Positions 2,885-15,841 of a stretch of DNA of 64,000 nt are shown in pieces. The DNA is taken from contig JBEKYR010000012.1 of the NCBI GenBank assembly GCA_049510745.1, forward strand, positions 74,208-138,207, read 5' to 3'. A program made the translations under genes and the position numbers. Position 1 is the first letter of the stretch; the number at the start of each line of letters is the position of its first letter. The notes beneath the pieces were generated by a model that searched no databases, had not been told where the DNA came from, and saw nothing but the letters and a program-made list of their open reading frames with translations. Origin of the DNA: Verrucomicrobiota bacterium (GTDB lineage: Bacteria; Verrucomicrobiota; Verrucomicrobiia; Limisphaerales; Palsa-1400).

Positions 2885-3177
2885 CTGAAGGCAGTCCGGC
2901 AAGACATGCTGTCATATGACAGTATGACATTCCATATCGGGGTTTCGTTCTTTTCGCCATTCTGTTCAGCATTCTGTTCACCGTTCTGTTCACCGTACGG
3001 TGAATCTCGCTGCGGGACGAATTCCGCCGGCGGTGGAGAGGTCAGTGGACGCGGGGCACCGTCCCCGAATTAGGGGTTCCGTCGGCGAGATGAGGGCGGG
3101 TGTGCCTCCGGCGCCATTTGTGTCTGGCGCCATTTGTGGCTTTCCGTTCCGGGGGGAATTCGCCAGACTGGGCGGCG

Positions 3178-6100
3178 ATGAAACGCCTGTATCTGTTTTT
3201 CGGTGTCTGGTTCCTGCTCGTAGTGTTCAGGGCCGGCGCCGTGACGCCCACCATCCTCTCCCCACCGGAAAGCGTCACCGTCAACAACGCTTCGGCCGCC
3301 GCCTTCACGGTCGTGGCGACCAACGCGGCCAGCTACCAGTGGCAGTTTCCGGGCACCAACAATCTGCCCGCAGCCACCAACGCCACGCTGAGCCTGGATA
3401 ATGTGACCAGCAACCAGGCGGGGAGCTACACTGTGGTCGTGACCTCGTCGGACAGCAATTCCATCAGCGCGACAGCGGTGTTGACGATTGTGCCCGGAAC
3501 GATCGTCCAGTTGACCATCTCGACTTACCCGGACGGGAGCAGCAACAGTTTTTTGGTGCAGTTGTTTGACCATGACAAGCCGGCCACGGTGGAGAACTTC
3601 ATTCATTACATCAGTTCCGGGGCTTATTCGAATATGTTCTTTGACCGGGACGTGACGAATTTTGTTCTGCAAGGGGGCGATTATGTCACCACCGATCGAA
3701 CGAGCAATTATCTGTACGGCGGGCCAGTTTCGGCGGGGGAACCCAGTTTTCCATCGCAAGTGGATAGCGAATTGAACGTGGGGCCGCTGATTCACAACAC
3801 ATTTGGCACGTTGGCCATGGCCTTGGCTACGGGAAAACCGGACTCGGCCAGCAGCGCGTTCTTCATCAGTTTGACGAACAATTCCCCGTACCTGGACACG
3901 AACAACGGCGGTTTCACCGTCTTCGGGCGGGTCATATCCAATGCCAATGTCCTGCAGTATTTCAACACCTTGAGCGCGCCGAGCAACGGGATTTTGGATT
4001 ACAGTTCGAGTATTCCGACGCTGCCGGTCAATTACGACGGGACCAATACTCCGAATAACGCCAATTTATTCTACTGCGATTTTGCGTTCCAAACCACGCC
4101 GCCGGTGGATACGAACCCGCCGACGGTTTCGATTGCCTTTCCAGCGCCGAACGCGGCCTTCACCAACGGCAGCCCGTTGACAGTGCAAGGGACAGCGCAG
4201 GATAATGTCGGATTGGCCGAGGTGTTTTGTGTTTTGACCTCGAGCACGGGCGCCTATGGCGGCAAGAGCCAGACCAATGCCGCGCTGGGCACAACCAATT
4301 GGTCGCTGGATCTGGTCAGTCAACTCGGAACGATTGAGCCGGGGGTTTACCAGTTGACGGCCTACGCCCAGGACGGGGCGGGCAACCTGAGCGCGCCGGC
4401 AACGGAGTATTTCACCAATCTGGCGCAATTGACCATCATCACCAACGTGGAGGGGAACCTGACAACCAACGCGCCGCAGTACCTGGTGCCGGGACAGCAG
4501 TACTCGGTGGCGGCGGCGCCGGGACCCGGACAACAGTTTGACACTTGGCAATATCAAGGGGTGGTGTCGATTAACCCGGTGCAAACGTTGACGGTGGAAT
4601 CCAACCTGACGTTGACGGTGACGTATCTATCCAACACCCTGCCCGCCGGCCTGGCCATAACTAATCCTGCCGCCGGTTCCCAGGTGCCAAGGACCAACAC
4701 CGGCCTGACCGTTAGTGGAACTCTTCCGCCGTCGGATATAGTAACGCAATTGACCTGCCAGCTTTTTTCCCAATCCAACGCCGTGACCGCCGCGAAATCC
4801 CCAAAGCTCAACGGCACCAACTGGACGCTGGCCGTAAGCAACCTTGTGGGCGGGCCTTACACGATAGTGGTTGTGGCGGAGGATTCGTCGGGCCGATTCG
4901 GATTGGTTTCGGAAAATTTCACGCTCCTCGCGCCGCCTATCATCATCTCGCAACCCTCCAGCCCGACCGTCAATAACGGTTCCGCGGCGGACTTCACCGT
5001 CGTGGCGACCAACGCGGTCGCCTACCAATGGCAGTTTGCGGGCACCAATAATCTGCCCGGAGCCACCAACGCCACCCTGGCCCTCGACGACGTGAGCACC
5101 AACCAGGAGGGTTCTTACACGGTCGTCATCACCGCCCCGGATGGCGAGACGTTGAGCAGCCAGCCGGCGGTCCTGACCGTGGTGCAAGGGACGATTGTGC
5201 AATTGACAATCTCGACTTACCCGGATGGGAGCAGCAACAGTTTTTTGGTGGAGTTGTTTGACCATGACAAGCCGGCCACGGTGGAAAACTTCGTCCATTA
5301 CATCAACTCCGGGGCGTACTCGAATATGTTCTTTGACCGGGACGTGACAAATTTTGTTTTGCAAGGGGGCGATTATGTCACCACTGATCGAACGAACAAT
5401 CATCTGTCCGGCGGGCCGGTTTCGGCGGGGGAACCCAATTTTCCGTCGCAAGTGGATAGCGAATTGAACGTGGGGCCGCTGATTCACAATACATTTGGCA
5501 CGTTGGCCATGGCCCTGGTTTCGGGAAAACCGGACTCGGCCAGCAGCGCGTTCTTCATCAGTTTGACGAACAATTCCCCGTACCTGGACACGAACAACGG
5601 CGGTTTCACCGTTTTCGGGCGGGTCATATCCAATGCCAACGCCCTGCAGTACTTCAACACCTTGAGCGCGCCGAGCAACGGCATTTTCAATTACAGTTCG
5701 GGTATTCCGACGCTGCCGGTTAATTACGACGGGACCGGCTTGCCCGCCAACAGTAATGTGTTCTACTGCGATTTTGTGTTCCAAACCACGCCGGTAGTCG
5801 ATACGAACCCGCCGACGGTCGTGATGACCTATCCGGCGCCAAACGCGGTTTTCAGCAACGGCAGCCCGTTGACAGTGCAAGGGACAGCGCAGGATAACAT
5901 CGGATTGGCCGAGGTGTTTTGTATTTTGACCTCGAGCACGGGCGCCTATAACAACAAGAGCCAGACCAATGCCGCGCTGGGCACAACCAATTGGTCACTG
6001 AATCTGGTCAGCAAACTGGGAACCATTCAGCCGGGGGTTTACCAGTTGACAGCCTACGCCCAGGACGGGGCGGGCAACCTGAGCACGCCGGCAACGGAGT

Positions 6101-9100
6101 ATTTCACCAATCTGACGCGACTGACGATCATCACGAACGTGGAAGGGAACCGGACAACCAACGCGCCGCAGTACCTGGTGCCGGGACAACAGTATTCCGT
6201 GACGGCGGCGCCGGGACCCGGACAAGAGTTTGACACTTGGACCTCCAACGGTGTGGCGTCGCTTAACCCGGAGCAAACGTTCACGGCGAACGGCAACCTC
6301 ACTCTGATGGTGACGTATCTTTCCAACACGCTGCCCGCCGGCCTGGCCATTAGCAGTCCTGCCGCCGGTTCCCAGGTGCCACGGACCAACACCGGCCTGA
6401 CCATTAGTGGAACTCTCCCGTCATCGACCACAGTGACGCAACTGACCTGCCAGCTTTTTTCCCAATCCAACGCCGTGACCGCCGCGCAATCGGCGAGCCT
6501 CAGTGGCGCCACCAACTGGTCGCTGGCCGTGAGCAATCTCGTGGGCGGCCCTTACACGATAGTGGTTGTGGCGGAGGATTCGTCGGGCCGTTTTGGATTG
6601 GTTTCGGAAGATTTCACGCTCCTCGCGCCGCCTGTCATCATCTCGCAACCCGCCAGCCTGACCGCCAATAGCGGTTCGGGGGCGGCTTTCACCGTCGTGG
6701 CGACCAACGCGGTCGCCTACCAGTGGCAGTTTCCGGGCACAAACAATCTGCCCGGCGCCACCAACGCCACCTTGACCCTTGACGACGTGAGCACCAACCA
6801 GGCGGGTTCTTACGTGGTCGTCATCACTGCCCCGGATGGCGAGACGTTGAGCAGCCAGCCGGCGGTCCTGACCGTAGTGCAAGGGACGATTGTGCAATTG
6901 ACCATCTCGACTTACCCGGACGGGAGCAGCAGCAATTTGGTGGTGGAGTTGTTTGACAATGACAAGCCGGCCACGGTGGAGAACTTCATCCATTGCATTA
7001 AGTACGGGGCGTACTCGAATATGTTCTTCGACCTGGATAAGGCCGGGTTTATTCTGCAAGGAGGGACTGACGGCGCCGTGGACCGCACGAATTCCACTCC
7101 CGGTCTGACCGGGTGGGGCATCTATAGTCAGTACATCGCGGGAAACACTAATTTTCCGTCGCAAGTCGATAGCGAATTCAAGGTGGGGCCGTTGCTGCAC
7201 AATACATTTGGCACGCTGGCCATGAGCTTGACTACCGGAAAGCCGGACTCGGCCTCAAGCTCGTTCCTCATTAATTTGGCGGACAATTCGGCGAACCTCG
7301 ATTATCAAAACGGCGGCTTCACCGTTTTCGGGCGGGTCATATCCAACGCCAACGTCCTGCAGTATTTCAACACCTTGAGCGCGCCGAGCAATGGCATTTC
7401 CAGCAATGTCATCACAGGTTTTGCGGCGCTGCCCGTCAATTACGACGGGACCAACGAACCCGCCAACAGCAACCTGTTCTTCTGCGATTTCAAGTTCCTG
7501 ACACCGCCGCCGGTGGATACAAGCCCGCCGACGGTCGCGATTGCTTTTCCGGCGCCGAACGCGGTTTTCACCAACGGCAGTCCGTTGACCGTGCAAGGGA
7601 CGGCGCACGACGATGTCGGATTGGCCGAGGTGTTCTGTGTTTTGACCTCGAGCACGGGCGCTTATGGTAACAAGAGCCTGACCAATGCCGCGCTGGGCAC
7701 AACCAACTGGTCGCTGAATCCGGCCAGTCAACTCGGAACCATCGAGCCGGGGGTTTACCAGTTGACGGCCTACGCCCAGGACGGGGCGGGAAATCTGAGC
7801 GCGCCGGCGGCGATTCAGTTCTTCACCAATCTGACGCGACTGACGATCATAACGAACGTTGCCGGCCACCTGACAACCAATGCGCCGCAGTACCTGGTGC
7901 CGGGACAGCAGTATTCCGTGACGGCGGCGCCCGGAGCGGGACAACAGTTTTACAGTTGGACCTCCAACGGGGTGACGTCGATCAACCCGGAGCAAACGTT
8001 CACGGCGAACGGCAACCTCACGCTGACGGTGACATATCTCTCGAACAATCTTGCGGCAGGCGTGACCATTACAAACCCCGTGACCGGCACGCAGGCTTTC
8101 GCCATCCAGTCGCTGCTGACGGTGAGCGGCACCCTATTTTCTTCGAGCACGGTCACGCAACTGACCTGCCAGTTTTTTGTCAACTCCAATTCCATCTCGA
8201 CCGCGCAGCCCGTCAACCTCGCCGGCACAAACTGGTCGCTGGCCGTGACCAATTTGGGCAACGGCGCCTACACGGTGGTGGCTGTGGCGAGCGACACGGC
8301 GGGCGACACGTTTTTCGCCGCGGCCAACTTCACGCTGCTGAACGTGGAGCAATTGACACTCAACGTCGTCGGAGGGGGAACCATCGCCAGCAATCCGGGA
8401 CCCTACGTTGTGCCCGGCACCTACACAGTCAAGGCGGTGCCCAACGCCGGGCAGGTCTTTTACAGTTGGAGCGACGGAGTCACCACCACGCTGAACCCTT
8501 CCAAGAAGTTTACGGTCGTGTCGAACCTGACGCTGACGGCGACGTTCGCCGGCGAGGACAAGTCGTTGAAGGGCATCGCGTTCACCTATCCATCGGCGAA
8601 CGCCAACGTGCCCAGTAATACATTCAACCGGGTGGAGGTAAAAGCTCCGGCATCGCTGAGTGTCACGCAGATGACGTGCCAGTTTTTTTTGCAATCCAAC
8701 GGCGTCACGGCATCGCCTCAATTCCTGAACTTCGATGCCGCCACCAAAAAATGGACGTTGCCCGTGACCAATTTCACGCCGGGGCCTTATGTGGTCATGG
8801 CAGTGGCGTATGACAAGGAGGGCAAGAGCAGGCTGGTGTCGGAGAAGTTTAATCTGCTGGCGAAGCTGGCGGTCGGCGTCCAGGGCAAAGGGACCGTGAC
8901 CGCCGGCTTGAACGGGAAGTACCTGCAGGTCGGCAAGAGCTACCGTATTTCCGCCACGCCGACCGCGGGGGAGGTGTTTGCGTTCTGGACCGGCGCGGTG
9001 GCAAACTCAAACAGCCCGGCGACCACGTTTGTCATGTCAAGCAATACGGTGTTGACGGCGACTTTTACAAACAACCCGTTTCCGTCGGTGGCAGGCACTT

Positions 9101-10071
9101 ACAACGGGCTGTTCTTCAATGCGACCAATCCGTCGCCGACCAGCTCCGGGTTTGTCACCTTGACCGTGGCCCGTTCCGGCGTGTTCAGCGGAAAACTGGT
9201 GATGCCCACGCTGACGCTGCCCATTTATCCAAGCAAGTTCCCTTACGCCGGCTCCGTCGAGTTTCGAGCGACGAAGGCATCGGATGACTTGGACCTCATC
9301 TTCGAGATCGATCTGACGGGCGGCACGGACCAACTGATCGGGGAGGTGAGTCATCGGGGCGCCTGGACAAACCTGCTGATTGCCTATCGCGCCGCCACCA
9401 ATCTTTCCAGTTCCAACATGCCCGCACCCGGAAAATACGTGCTGACTCTGCAACCAACCAACGGAAGCGCCGGCAGCCCGACCTCCCCCGGTTACGCCGC
9501 CGTCACGGTGGAAAAGAGCGGGACGGTGGTTTTGGGCGGGGTGTTGCCGGACAATACCGGCATTTCCAAATCCGTCGGAATGTCAAAGGAGGGCCTATGG
9601 CCGCTCTTCATAGCGCCGGCCGGCTACAAGGGCCGCGGGCTGATCATCGGCTGGCAAACCAACCTGTCGTCGCTTGGCCAACTGGCGTGGATCAAACCGG
9701 CGGCCGGCGGGACCTATTATCCCCGCGGCTTTACGACGAGACTGGATGTCACCGGCGCCGGCCACGTCCCGCCCGAGGCCGGCACAAACTACGAAATCGT
9801 TTTCGGCGGGGGCAGCCTGGGGACCAACGCCGCCGTGACCGACCTTCTGACTGTCAACAATTCCAAACAGTTCGTCCCGGAAGGCGCCACGAACAAACTG
9901 GAGATTTCGCTCCTGCCCGGCGGCGCGCTGACGGGGCATTTTCTCAATGAGGTCGATGGCAGGACGCTGTCGTTCAAGGGCGCTTTCACCAGCCCGTCGC
10001 AAGGAGGTTCGGGTTTCACGCTGGATACCAACGGCGAGAGCGGCTATTTCAACCTGAGCTTGAAGCCGTGA
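3178..10071 (+). CDS. Giant secreted protein: 3 x (Ig-like + cyclophilin-type PPIase + bacterial Ig-like/B-repeat domains) plus a beta-rich C-terminal region
   Basis: Signal peptide MKRLYLFFGVWFLLVVFRAGA; three ~564-aa modules with PATVENF..Y, FVLQGG, GTLAMA, FTVFGRV cyclophilin motifs and YQWQ..ATNATL Ig motifs. Confidence 0.85.
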   Translation: MKRLYLFFGVWFLLVVFRAGAVTPTILSPPESVTVNNASAAAFTVVATNAASYQWQFPGTNNLPAATNATLSLDNVTSNQAGSYTVVVTSSDSNSISATAVLTIVPGTIVQLTISTYPDGSSNSFLVQLFDHDKPATVENFIHYISSGAYSNMFFDRDVTNFVLQGGDYVTTDRTSNYLYGGPVSAGEPSFPSQVDSELNVGPLIHNTFGTLAMALATGKPDSASSAFFISLTNNSPYLDTNNGGFTVFGRVISNANVLQYFNTLSAPSNGILDYSSSIPTLPVNYDGTNTPNNANLFYCDFAFQTTPPVDTNPPTVSIAFPAPNAAFTNGSPLTVQGTAQDNVGLAEVFCVLTSSTGAYGGKSQTNAALGTTNWSLDLVSQLGTIEPGVYQLTAYAQDGAGNLSAPATEYFTNLAQLTIITNVEGNLTTNAPQYLVPGQQYSVAAAPGPGQQFDTWQYQGVVSINPVQTLTVESNLTLTVTYLSNTLPAGLAITNPAAGSQVPRTNTGLTVSGTLPPSDIVTQLTCQLFSQSNAVTAAKSPKLNGTNWTLAVSNLVGGPYTIVVVAEDSSGRFGLVSENFTLLAPPIIISQPSSPTVNNGSAADFTVVATNAVAYQWQFAGTNNLPGATNATLALDDVSTNQEGSYTVVITAPDGETLSSQPAVLTVVQGTIVQLTISTYPDGSSNSFLVELFDHDKPATVENFVHYINSGAYSNMFFDRDVTNFVLQGGDYVTTDRTNNHLSGGPVSAGEPNFPSQVDSELNVGPLIHNTFGTLAMALVSGKPDSASSAFFISLTNNSPYLDTNNGGFTVFGRVISNANALQYFNTLSAPSNGIFNYSSGIPTLPVNYDGTGLPANSNVFYCDFVFQTTPVVDTNPPTVVMTYPAPNAVFSNGSPLTVQGTAQDNIGLAEVFCILTSSTGAYNNKSQTNAALGTTNWSLNLVSKLGTIQPGVYQLTAYAQDGAGNLSTPATEYFTNLTRLTIITNVEGNRTTNAPQYLVPGQQYSVTAAPGPGQEFDTWTSNGVASLNPEQTFTANGNLTLMVTYLSNTLPAGLAISSPAAGSQVPRTNTGLTISGTLPSSTTVTQLTCQLFSQSNAVTAAQSASLSGATNWSLAVSNLVGGPYTIVVVAEDSSGRFGLVSEDFTLLAPPVIISQPASLTANSGSGAAFTVVATNAVAYQWQFPGTNNLPGATNATLTLDDVSTNQAGSYVVVITAPDGETLSSQPAVLTVVQGTIVQLTISTYPDGSSSNLVVELFDNDKPATVENFIHCIKYGAYSNMFFDLDKAGFILQGGTDGAVDRTNSTPGLTGWGIYSQYIAGNTNFPSQVDSEFKVGPLLHNTFGTLAMSLTTGKPDSASSSFLINLADNSANLDYQNGGFTVFGRVISNANVLQYFNTLSAPSNGISSNVITGFAALPVNYDGTNEPANSNLFFCDFKFLTPPPVDTSPPTVAIAFPAPNAVFTNGSPLTVQGTAHDDVGLAEVFCVLTSSTGAYGNKSLTNAALGTTNWSLNPASQLGTIEPGVYQLTAYAQDGAGNLSAPAAIQFFTNLTRLTIITNVAGHLTTNAPQYLVPGQQYSVTAAPGAGQQFYSWTSNGVTSINPEQTFTANGNLTLTVTYLSNNLAAGVTITNPVTGTQAFAIQSLLTVSGTLFSSSTVTQLTCQFFVNSNSISTAQPVNLAGTNWSLAVTNLGNGAYTVVAVASDTAGDTFFAAANFTLLNVEQLTLNVVGGGTIASNPGPYVVPGTYTVKAVPNAGQVFYSWSDGVTTTLNPSKKFTVVSNLTLTATFAGEDKSLKGIAFTYPSANANVPSNTFNRVEVKAPASLSVTQMTCQFFLQSNGVTASPQFLNFDAATKKWTLPVTNFTPGPYVVMAVAYDKEGKSRLVSEKFNLLAKLAVGVQGKGTVTAGLNGKYLQVGKSYRISATPTAGEVFAFWTGAVANSNSPATTFVMSSNTVLTATFTNNPFPSVAGTYNGLFFNATNPSPTSSGFVTLTVARSGVFSGKLVMPTLTLPIYPSKFPYAGSVEFRATKASDDLDLIFEIDLTGGTDQLIGEVSHRGAWTNLLIAYRAATNLSSSNMPAPGKYVLTLQPTNGSAGSPTSPGYAAVTVEKSGTVVLGGVLPDNTGISKSVGMSKEGLWPLFIAPAGYKGRGLIIGWQTNLSSLGQLAWIKPAAGGTYYPRGFTTRLDVTGAGHVPPEAGTNYEIVFGGGSLGTNAAVTDLLTVNNSKQFVPEGATNKLEISLLPGGALTGHFLNEVDGRTLSFKGAFTSPSQGGSGFTLDTNGESGYFNLSLKP

Positions 10072-13804: not shown

Positions 13805-13891
13805 ATTGATGAATTCACCATAGTGCATTCAATTTGGCGGTCAAAGCGAAAGAGGCAGCGGTAGTTCTAATTCGGGGAATTATATACATCG

Positions 13892-14302
13892 TTACCCTAA
13901 GCCTTGATTTTTTGCGCGTGTCTCGGCGGCTTTTAAGCCAGCGAGCCGCCACTTGCGGCGGAAAGAAGTTTGCCGTTTTTTGCGACTCAAGGCCGCCTTT
14001 ATACCGGCATCCTTCATGCGTTTTGACCACTTGACCACTTTTGGGCGATCGCGCATTTCGATGATTGTAGCTGTTGAGATCAAGTCGAGATCATGCATCT
14101 TGTGGCAATTAGGGCAGAGGATGACTAGGTTTGATGCTGCGCTATTGGCTCGATTTCCGTCAATGTGGGCCACTTCCAGAACGTCTTTAATTCCGAATCC
14201 GCAATGAGCGCACAAGGCGGGATAGGTTGCGAAGGCCAACTTGCGGTAATTGACGCGCTTGGCACTCACGTTACTTGGAGAATTTGTATATTCATAAGTC
14301 AT
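13892..14302 (-). CDS. HNH endonuclease (Zn-binding CxxC...CxxC type)
   Basis: CAHCG...LEVAHIDGNRANSAASNLVILCPNCHKMHD; basic C-terminal tail; stop codon lies inside the left IR. Confidence 0.88.
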   Translation of the reverse strand: MTYEYTNSPSNVSAKRVNYRKLAFATYPALCAHCGFGIKDVLEVAHIDGNRANSAASNLVILCPNCHKMHDLDLISTATIIEMRDRPKVVKWSKRMKDAGIKAALSRKKRQTSFRRKWRLAGLKAAETRAKNQGLG

Positions 14303-15153
14303 TGACTAGTATTATGTTGTGAACGTTTATCCTCTTGCTCTCTGAGTTTACTGCAATCTTCTTCCCATTGTTTCTCGGCTTGCCGCGACTTTTCGAACGC
14401 TTCGTCTATTTCTTTGTAAATATCGGCGATAACTCTCTCGTATGCTTGCGTTCTAGCCACTCCAAGTTGATTGTTTTCGGCGTTAAGTTTTTTGCAAATT
14501 CGTTCCGTGAAGTGATTCGGGAATGGCATGGTGCGTTTTCGACCACGCTCTACAACCGCAACGCTGACAGGGCCACCGCAAAAAGCGTCAATGCCCTTGA
14601 CGTGCTCAATTGTATCTATCGCCAAAGTCAGCCCTGTTTGCCATGTCATGCGGCTGGCGTCTATTTGACTGAGAAAGAACTTCGATATTCTAGAGGCAAT
14701 TCCAATCGCCGCAAATCGGGAACACGGCTGGGCTTGGGCCGTGATTGAGTCAATGGTATAAAGATAGGCTTTATACCTGTAAAAATGGGCGATCATCAAT
14801 TGAAAAAAATTCTCGTCTCGTTCAAATAAAGCCCGCTGCCGATCTTCTGGCATGTCTGGAAGATTATATAAGCCCAACACATTACGATGGAAATTTTTGA
14901 TTGATTTTTGTGCTAAATTTACCGCTGCCCATTCGCTATCTAGGGATTTGCCATTAGCCTCTCTTTTAATGTCATCAATAACCCGGAAGGCAGGCGCAAT
15001 TCCACCACAGAATGCAATCAAAGCCCCATTATCTTCAAAATCAATGCTGTATATTTTCAACGCATCGAGTTCTTTCATGCTGCCAGCGGTCGCTTGACTC
15101 TCTCCCGCCATGACAACCGTATCTTTACAGATGACACCCACAATCTGGCTCAT
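14299..15153 (-). CDS. Proteasome beta-subunit-like Ntn hydrolase (predicted Ser1 nucleophile) with a charged helical C-terminal extension
   Basis: GGAGG RBS before ATG 15153; SQIVGVICKDTVVMAGESQAT..LKI, LYTID, AAIG, MTWQTGLTLAIDTI, DAFCGGPVSVAVV are collinear with proteasome beta motifs. Confidence 0.75.
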   Translation of the reverse strand: MSQIVGVICKDTVVMAGESQATAGSMKELDALKIYSIDFEDNGALIAFCGGIAPAFRVIDDIKREANGKSLDSEWAAVNLAQKSIKNFHRNVLGLYNLPDMPEDRQRALFERDENFFQLMIAHFYRYKAYLYTIDSITAQAQPCSRFAAIGIASRISKFFLSQIDASRMTWQTGLTLAIDTIEHVKGIDAFCGGPVSVAVVERGRKRTMPFPNHFTERICKKLNAENNQLGVARTQAYERVIADIYKEIDEAFEKSRQAEKQWEEDCSKLREQEDKRSQHNTSQ

Positions 15154-15385
15154 TGGCACCCTCCATTTCTTAAAAAAGGGCGGCGGCTTTGGTTGCGGAA
15201 ACCTGTAAGGAGTGAATGGACGTTTTTAACGGAGTCATTCATACCGCCAATGGTAAACGCTGGAATCGCTGCGACAAGACTGAATATCTGATAGCGGGGC
15301 ATTATTCATCGCAACACACTAATCCGCAGCGACTTCCGCAGAGGTAACGTTGTATATAATTCCCCTAATTTGAATTGCGGTTAGC

Positions 15386-15841
15386 TCATGCTTCAGGCTG
15401 CCATTCCGTTTCCGCAAATATGGTGTAAAGAAGACTCTGCCCGCTGTCTATTGCCATCCCTTCCAGCCGGGAGGAGATAACCACATTGAGAAACCTGCTC
15501 AGAGCGAAAGGGGTGTGTCGCTCATCGACGGAGATGATTTGCGCCAACTTGTTCGCAGAAAGGCAAGCCAGAATGCGGTAATACTCCTCTAATGCAGGCG
15601 CATCCGCGAGCGCCTGTGGATGGGCGAACACTTCGCTGGGTACGAAGTCAAGGAGTTGCGCGGTCTGGCGAGCCAGATTGGAAATGCAAAGTTCATCCCA
15701 ATCCCAAACAAGGTTTCTCCACATTGCGCGCTGGGCTATCTCTCGCAGTTGCTCAAACCGGGATGCTTGGATGCAGTGCCAGAAACTGCGAGACCGCGCC
15801 AGGAATTGCTCCTGGAGCGCAGAGGTAATGTCTTGAGTCAT
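15386..15841 (-). CDS. Hypothetical protein, possibly the N-terminal part of an XcyI-like restriction endonuclease
   Basis: ATGA overlap with the trpA stop; WDWDELCIS..VFAHPQAL..YYRILACLS is reminiscent of XcyI-family N-termini (recalled, not searched). Confidence 0.45.
   Translation of the reverse strand: MTQDITSALQEQFLARSRSFWHCIQASRFEQLREIAQRAMWRNLVWDWDELCISNLARQTAQLLDFVPSEVFAHPQALADAPALEEYYRILACLSANKLAQIISVDERHTPFALSRFLNVVISSRLEGMAIDSGQSLLYTIFAETEWQPEA

Follow-up and report, generated by a model that had tools for sequence, protein, structure and literature searches.

Results

The beta gene lies in an IS1595-family cassette

The stretch of Verrucomicrobiota DNA analysed here (64 kb, referred to below as the window) contains a gene for a protein of the proteasome-beta fold, which the initial annotation had treated as stand-alone. 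The gene lies instead inside a 1,490-bp cassette of the IS1595 family without a transposase, and the same genome has three further family copies, all with Thr1, of which the first belongs to a complete IS1595 element, the second follows a lone repeat and the third is flanked by a rep gene and an integrase gene. The cassette has the terminal inverted repeats and the 8-bp target duplication of an IS1595 element (Table 1), as well as autonomous relatives with the same ends: its repeat type also bounds the autonomous IS1595 elements L006 and L071, in which an IS1595 transposase gene follows beta at the position taken in the window by an HNH gene, and the L071 transposase scores above the PF12762 and NF033547 cut-offs. 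The accessible text on IS1595 (PMC8101967) gives an 8-bp target duplication and a zinc finger as characters of the group, and the cassette resembles such elements in its terminal repeats starting with GG, in its 8-bp duplication and in its autonomous relatives with a zinc-ribbon DDE transposase. It differs from them in its proteasome-like passenger, of which no report was found in the literature searched; subscription papers, the original IS1595 paper, ISfinder and bioRxiv supplements were beyond reach, so an annotation in a database is possible. Siguier, Gagnevin and Chandler are said to have used, in 2009, the names tIS and MIC for IS1595 passenger-gene elements and transposase-less cassettes.

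The cassette is placed between the mannose-1-phosphate guanylyltransferase gene (manC) and trpA, which adjoin each other without an insert in the sister genome G001; in genome G002 the same site holds a restriction-modification set of cytosine methylase, restriction enzyme and Vsr. The beta gene region has a GC content of about 45%, against 60% for the genome. The left copy of the target duplication, as an 8-mer on either strand, also flanks elements at L025, L073, L119 and L137. No other copy of the cassette ends was found in the 94% complete assembly, whose two IS1595 transposases belong to other groups, and over the beta gene the listed pieces of contigs from runs X3, X6 and X7 (one of which may be the source) are free of differences. 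A run of about 150 open codons (15386-15838, minus strand), intermediate in GC content and not enclosed by the repeats, lies between the end of trpA and the cassette; it had no Pfam match and only weak Atlas matches, and is possibly a remnant of an earlier insert at the site. Elsewhere in the window, an open reading frame on the plus strand (3100-10071) encodes a secreted-looking protein of 2,323 residues in which three cyclophilin-like repeats and Ig-like segments were recognized by eye.

Table 1. Features of the cassette and of the beta protein; nucleotide positions are those of the window.
Feature	Position	Strand	Details
Target-site duplication, right copy	13867..13874		8 bp
Right terminal inverted repeat	13875..13896	+	22 bp
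HNH nuclease-like gene	13892..14302	-	136 aa; PF01844 E 7e-5
Beta gene (proteasome-beta-fold Ntn hydrolase)	14299..15153	-	284 aa; starts MSQIVG
Upstream ORF, 30 codons	15150..15242	-	starts 8 nt after predicted -10; ATGA overlap with beta start
Predicted sigma-70-type promoter	15250..15277	-	-35 at 15272-15277, 16-bp spacer, -10 at 15250-15255; consensus match only
Left terminal inverted repeat	15343..15364	-	22 bp, 21/22 matching right repeat
Target-site duplication, left copy	15365..15372		8 bp, 7/8 identical to right copy
Beta residues			Ser1, Glu17, Lys32 (mature numbering); Ile at Ser129 position; Asp166; Cys at Ser169 position
Beta helices			insertion after H2, residues 103-111; C-terminal helix, residues 213-283

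The start of the HNH gene overlaps the stop codon of beta (ATGA), and its own stop codon lies inside the right inverted repeat. The HNH family is large and conserved (868 matches, the best 120 at 65-84% identity) and has a basic C-terminal tail; matches on viral contigs were only distant. An HNH gene was found beside beta at none of the other family loci, and all five HNH homologues in the 401 genomes surveyed (61-74% identical) are without beta or an insertion sequence nearby. On these counts no partnership of the two genes was seen, and the earlier proposal that the HNH protein might be a substrate of beta is disfavoured by the same five homologues; the HNH gene is probably a chance co-passenger.

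Fold and active site of the window beta

Profile search placed the protein in PF00227 (E 8e-13, above the cut-off), and its best solved relative by sequence is the archaeal beta subunit 3h4p (E 1.1e-5), with Thr1 aligned to Ser2 of the translated sequence. An AlphaFold2 model built from a 125-sequence alignment has a mean pLDDT of 96.5; it keeps H1-H4, with helices at residues 52-66 and 76-95 and a single end helix, and in Foldseek its top match was 1j2q (E 3.6e-12), archaeal beta subunits and Anbu ranking first. VIA Z-scores were 22-24 for proteasome and Anbu, 18.6 for HslV, 15-16 for BPH and 11.5-12.6 for Connectase. The protein thus combines the profile match with the alpha-beta-beta-alpha fold of the PF00227 Ntn clan, and the initial assignment to a proteasome-beta fold, for which this modelling and structure search had been proposed as a check, is borne out. 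The N-terminal Thr or Ser with Asp or Glu17 and Lys33 is present by sequence register, and every motif that had been named (Ser1, Glu17, Lys32, GIA and DAFCGG) lies in alignment register with archaeal beta, GIA at residues 151-153 aligning with GSG and DAFCGG at residues 189-194 with D-x-x-S/T-GG. The charged tail is helical as described, at a length of about 70 residues and not about 60. The statement that no alpha subunit is nearby stands as far as the window goes, since no second PF00227 match was found within its 64 kb, but a real 20S beta subunit is encoded elsewhere in the genome, on contig C5. PADLOC 2.0, whose library holds described systems only, gave no match to the window beta, and word-index protein searches returned just one and eight matches and were uninformative.

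The family is conserved at the catalytic positions and Ser1 is sporadic

A search of 1.84 billion representatives returned 405 family proteins (E <= 0.001, 50% clustering), and an alignment was made of the window beta with 124 of the best 150 of these 405 matches, leaving out fragments and several proteins with insertions near the N-terminus. Among these 125 sequences, position 1 is Thr in 112, Ser in 12 and Pro in one, and is therefore Thr or Ser in 124; position 17 is Asp in 100 and Glu in 25, with no other residue; and Lys33 is invariant (125/125). The positions of the second triad are less regular: 129 is Cys in 57, Ser in 23 and Ile in 20, among others, and 166 is Asp in 86 and Val in 20. 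Cys169 is a trait of the family (120/125). Close beta pairs gave dN/dS values of 0.05-0.16 in 15/34 pairs with unsaturated dS, the window copy having no close relative. The invariant Lys33, the retained Asp/Glu17, the family-wide Cys169 and the low dN/dS make a catalytic role of the family likely.

In the proteasome, Thr1, Lys33 and Asp or Glu17 make up the catalytic triad and Ser129 and Asp166 form part of a second triad, and a Thr1-to-Ser replacement in yeast beta5 lowers activity by 40-45%, according to the available part of one study (PMC4792962); Fuchs, Alva and Lupas write the triad as Thr1/Ser1 in the accessible text of their 2021 survey (PMC8665760). Ser1 and Glu17 are thus compatible with catalysis as far as published work goes, which disfavours the non-catalytic sensor or scaffold that had been offered as one option, and because of this compatibility the real departure of the protein is to be sought in the second triad, where it is family-wide.

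Ser1 had also been taken as the mark of a distinct subfamily. In a tree of 171 rows, made by a quick method with SH-aLRT support only, excluding loci below 220 residues and with five groups of near-duplicate or short rows merged or omitted, the 13 Ser1 rows need 12 changes, against a mean of 12.7 for shuffled labels, and the starred branches force at least 10. Ser1 therefore arose repeatedly, and a Ser1 subfamily was rejected. The starred clade that contains the window beta has 16 rows, of which 13 carry Thr1; the window beta has a long branch (1.03), combines Ser1 with Ile129 and has an out-of-frame leader (see below). Ser1 recurs sporadically across a large family found on several kinds of mobile DNA, and is itself ordinary. 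What does find support is the broader claim that these proteins form a divergent, proteasome-like family of Ntn type which lies outside proteasome, HslV, Anbu, BPH and Connectase.

By profile, TIGR03634 (beta) is the closest model for 113 of the 125 members. Within the order, the family was detected in 11/401 genomes; among the 401 sampled from the class, none beyond the order had it. Plasmids and GenBank phages gave no family match; viral contigs gave one family locus with broad patterns and none for the window beta's own clade; and the Atlas holds look-alike clusters in Acidobacteriota and phages, which are a lead only.

Beta is exchangeable cargo of several kinds of mobile element

After weak matches and fragments had been dropped, the collection comprised 65 distinct loci whose N-terminus could be read; most came from search patterns biased to one subfamily, L033 being the only other locus of the window beta's clade. 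Context was counted at the 38 loci with at least 1.5 kb downstream, and 34 of these have a link to mobile DNA; of the four without a link, two are broken genes. That the gene is transposon cargo is what the stand-alone view had chiefly overlooked. An IS1595 transposase is present at 24 loci, an inverted-repeat pair only at two and an upstream inverted repeat only at five; complete IS1-type elements with perfect inverted repeats account for two more, and an integrase element for one. In type-1 IS1595 elements and both IS1-type elements, beta is the first gene after the promoter of the inverted repeat and overlaps the transposase gene, while in type-2 elements the two genes lie tail to tail. The IS1-type elements (L099:4934-6818 and L100:5018-6807) have identical 16-bp ends and duplications of 8-9 bp, and their transposases score above the Pfam cut-off and below the NCBI IS1 cut-off; one of the two also carries a superinfection-immunity domain gene. 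The family copy at L176:4609-9374 (G000 contig C5) has a REP_ORF2-G2P replication gene on one side and a tyrosine integrase on the other, and this stretch is a small integrative element. At L041, a 742-bp cassette with both repeats and a perfect duplication has as its sole gene a shortened beta that reads through the right repeat, and at L137:1-834 a more distant proteasome-like gene is found immediately 5' of an IS1595 transposase gene, in an element whose repeat type is that of the window cassette.

The IS1595 transposases found beside beta fall into four groups at 50% identity, and transposases that are 92-95% identical accompany betas that are just 32-36% identical, the distances of the two proteins being weakly correlated (Mantel r 0.28, p 0.002). 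In a control, 31 IS1595 transposase matches were taken from 31 genomes of the family, and beta lies beside four of the 30 that were read with 1.5-kb flanks; every transposase group has beta-less members. IS1595, IS1-type and integrative elements carry beta as optional cargo that can be swapped, and broken copies are common in relatives. Named co-cargo and neighbours include methyltransferase-Mrr fusions, MmeI-type and N6 methyltransferases, PDC-S45, superinfection-immunity domain and Panacea domain proteins. The co-cargo that could be named is mostly restriction-modification and other conflict-type genes, and most cargo is unnamed, 34 of the 45 non-transposase cargo proteins examined having no family match. 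By eye, a palindrome of about 18 bp is shared just 5' of the type-2 element at 12 loci (L002, L026, L027, L031, L045, L057, L059, L076, L078, L080, L082 and L089), which suggests a target preference.

Start codon and upstream leader

Residue 1 is preceded by a GTG or ATG codon at all 65 loci (L020 after re-anchoring), and because of this we read that codon as the start codon and not as a Val or Met cleavage site; an autolysed pro-segment with Val or Met at P1 was rejected, in its simple form, for the same reason. For the window copy, the absence of a propeptide, as first described, holds: upstream there is no in-frame ATG, and only a GTG two codons up. The upstream ORF of the window is one base out of frame with beta and is likely a frameshifted remnant of the family's in-frame leader. 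Contigs of the three runs named above cover it without an indel, and an assembly error in the A-run of the leader is unsupported, since these contigs (one maybe the source) agree. From the out-of-frame ATG, the ORF ending on the beta start and the absence of an indel in three runs, the window copy most likely begins at Met-Ser.

Many database entries for the family have a basic, proline-rich N-terminal extension. Over the ten upstream codons, the beta frame holds 275 Lys and Arg codons against 198 expected and seven stops against 27 expected, while the other frames hold 32 stops against 29 and 18 against 25; 556 host genes gave no Lys, Arg or Pro bias. The 18 type-1 elements whose repeat is intact have this frame open from their first base onward (no stop in 322 codons, compared with 10 and 19 stops per 304 codons in the other frames), and the leaders are 63-75 nt long, all multiples of three and most without an upstream ATG, counts that overstate the significance because the loci are related. 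The upstream frame of the family thus looks coding. Elements with decayed repeats include out-of-frame leaders. In several type-2 elements a predicted -10 box is followed, 3-5 nt on, by an in-frame ATG. In type-1 elements inspected by eye (e.g. L025, L035, L049 and L073), a predicted -10 box in frame with beta starts with C, and one that starts with T is shifted by one base, avoiding an in-frame stop. The idea that the open leader is the translated junction of a circular intermediate was dropped, as several target sequences, again by eye, give an in-frame stop.

Relation to the host 20S proteasome

The real 20S beta of the window genome lies within a Pup-proteasome-like operon (G000 contig C5 125312-128293) whose beta bears a propeptide and in which alpha-like and PafA-like ORFs were recognized by eye. 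A 20S beta match was found in six of the 11 family-positive genomes, against 160 of the 401 overall (a background count that includes one unpublished genome, G334), and four family-positive genomes without one are 92-96% complete. No dependence on the host proteasome was seen, with just six of 11 positive genomes having a 20S beta, and a host 20S proteasome is not required.

Discussion

Comparison with known proteasome-fold proteins

The window beta shares with archaeal-type 20S beta subunits (PF00227; TIGR03634; 3h4p, 1j2q and 1pma) the Ntn fold, the N-terminal nucleophile, the register of Glu17 and Lys33, Gly47 and Asp166. It differs from them in an identity of about 20% and a TIGR03634 score of 39.2 bits against a cut-off of 224; it has no adjacent alpha gene and no propeptide ending in Gly(-1), its -1 codon being the start codon; the second triad, Ser129/Asp166/Ser169 in the proteasome, reads Ile/Asp/Cys; and it adds the helical insertion after H2, the 70-residue tail helix and a location in mobile cargo. 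HslV, whose model gives the window beta 21.7 bits against a cut-off of 137, is compact and without the C-terminal helix, and BPH is a compact group I subunit without S12/H5, whereas the window beta has a long H5. Anbu is built of dimers joined by coiled coils that make up a split ring. The likeness to Anbu (5lox and 5nyw; VIA Z 22.8), as the available text describes it (PMC5666114), extends to the missing propeptide, the nucleophile bared by removal of Met, the long C-terminal helix and the lack of an unfoldase; the identity in structural alignments is only 9-15%, however, the gene neighbourhood is different, and no Anbu is among the 18 PDB sequence matches of the window beta to E 10. Connectase (6zw0 and 8jtu) can likewise use Ser1 as nucleophile, but as far as the accessible description goes (PMC7980362) it is a monomer without H1-H2 and with a two-helix insertion in S3/S4, whereas the window beta keeps H1-H2 and is without that insertion.

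Of the homologues surveyed by Fuchs, Alva and Lupas (PMC8665760), PHI/WPH is described in the available text as close to beta, with a long C-terminal helix, presence in the PVC group, a Thr1/Ser1 triad and, in PHI, a helical insertion after H2, which is matched by the insertion helix of the window beta; PMI-2 to PMI-6 have an insertion between H3 and H4, where the window beta aligns gap-free with archaeal beta. The architecture fits PHI best, compared by description only, and the window family may be PHI. That text reports no suggestive genomic context for its homologues, whereas the window family is tied to insertion sequences.

A proposed role and its alternatives

The best-supported account is that of an active Ntn protease, exposed when Met is removed, that would work with neither alpha ring nor ATPase and whose gene selection maintains as cargo exchanged among small mobile elements. 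Our tentative reading, which we put forward as plausible but short of probable, is that the window beta is a passenger of a non-autonomous IS1595 cassette and is an active, ATP-independent protease of narrow specificity, a swappable passenger that its carriers would use in conflicts with phages or other mobile DNA. Terminal repeats and a target duplication enclose the gene, and members of its family are carried by several groups of insertion sequence. A promoter inside the element would drive it; translation would start at the codon before residue 1, and removal of Met would bare Ser1 without autolysis. To judge from conservation and published mutants, Ser1, Lys32 and Glu17 would attack the peptide bond, and loss of Ser129 together with the family Cys169 may alter the second, amine-protonating triad and make the enzyme slower or more selective than the proteasome. 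By analogy with Anbu, which according to the part of its description available oligomerizes through its tail helix (PMC5666114), the long C-terminal helix probably joins a homo-oligomer, with neither alpha ring nor unfoldase. One or a few targets would be cut, and quick swapping of alleles could shift the target range. Defence, or conflict between elements, is suggested because presence is optional, alleles are swapped, genomes hold multiple divergent copies and the co-cargo is of conflict type; the defence bias of the elements nevertheless rests on a minority of their cargo, most of which has no family match.

Because beta overlaps the transposase gene in one operon in type-1 and IS1-type elements, regulation of transposition would fit too, with the protease clipping, degrading or maturing the co-translated transposase, or a host factor, and so tuning transposition. 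We consider this possible, if on the whole unlikely: beta comes first after the repeat promoter, recurs beside four IS1595 groups and IS1, and its distances correlate weakly with those of the transposase, but 26 of 30 IS1595 loci have no beta, very different betas accompany near-identical transposases, the gene is intact in transposase-less cassettes (the window and, with a shortened gene, L041) and in the integrase element, and in type-2 elements the two genes are arranged tail to tail. That the protein acts as a Connectase-like transpeptidase or ligase, with an amine or the conserved Cys169 taking the place of water in resolving the Ser1 or Thr1 acyl-enzyme, is unlikely; the remodelled second triad and the use of Ser1 by the Methanocaldococcus jannaschii (M. 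jannaschii) Connectase, reported in the accessible part of its description (PMC7980362), would suit such chemistry, but the model keeps H1-H2 without the S3/S4 insertion, its Z-score to Connectase is 12.6 against 22-24 to proteasome and Anbu, and no conserved partner gene was seen.

A weak or decaying cargo, or a non-catalytic binder, would be in keeping with the long branch of the window copy, its Ser1 and Ile129, its frameshifted leader, the one mismatch each in repeat and duplication, the lost transposase and the many broken copies in relatives; the reading frame is nevertheless intact over 284 codons with all triad residues present, the model is confident and the contigs of three runs agree over the gene in the pieces listed, and we regard decay as rather improbable. 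It is very improbable that beta and the HNH nuclease work as a pair, with the protease activating or restraining its partner: the two genes overlap and share one pair of inverted repeats, but HNH is absent beside beta at all other family loci and its five closest homologues lie away from beta and insertion sequences. The chance that the window beta is an alternative subunit or a poison of the host 20S proteasome seems slighter still; its genome does encode a 20S beta, and beta is the family's nearest relative by profile, but 20S beta occurs in little more than half of the positive genomes, several near-complete ones being without it.

Returning to the reading of beta as conflict cargo, a more far-reaching form, which we rate as rather doubtful, is that a hypervariable protease of proteasome type, with a Cys-remodelled site, travels as an exchangeable immunity module on small elements from two insertion-sequence families, its two-start gene yielding long, blocked subunits with a basic leader and short active ones in a self-regulating complex.

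Significance

The locus adds to what was known of such proteins that Ser1 defines no clade, that the -1 codon is the start codon, that IS1-type and integrase elements are carriers as well, and that neither HNH nor the host proteasome is a required partner; the parts that call for explanation are the family-wide Cys169 and the open basic leader, and not Ser1. For 22 orphan proteasome homologues, Fuchs et al. (PMC8665760) found no genomic context that hints at function, as far as the available text shows. One large family (405 representatives at 50% clustering) now has a clear context: its members are under purifying selection and travel as interchangeable cargo on IS1595, IS1-type and integrative elements.
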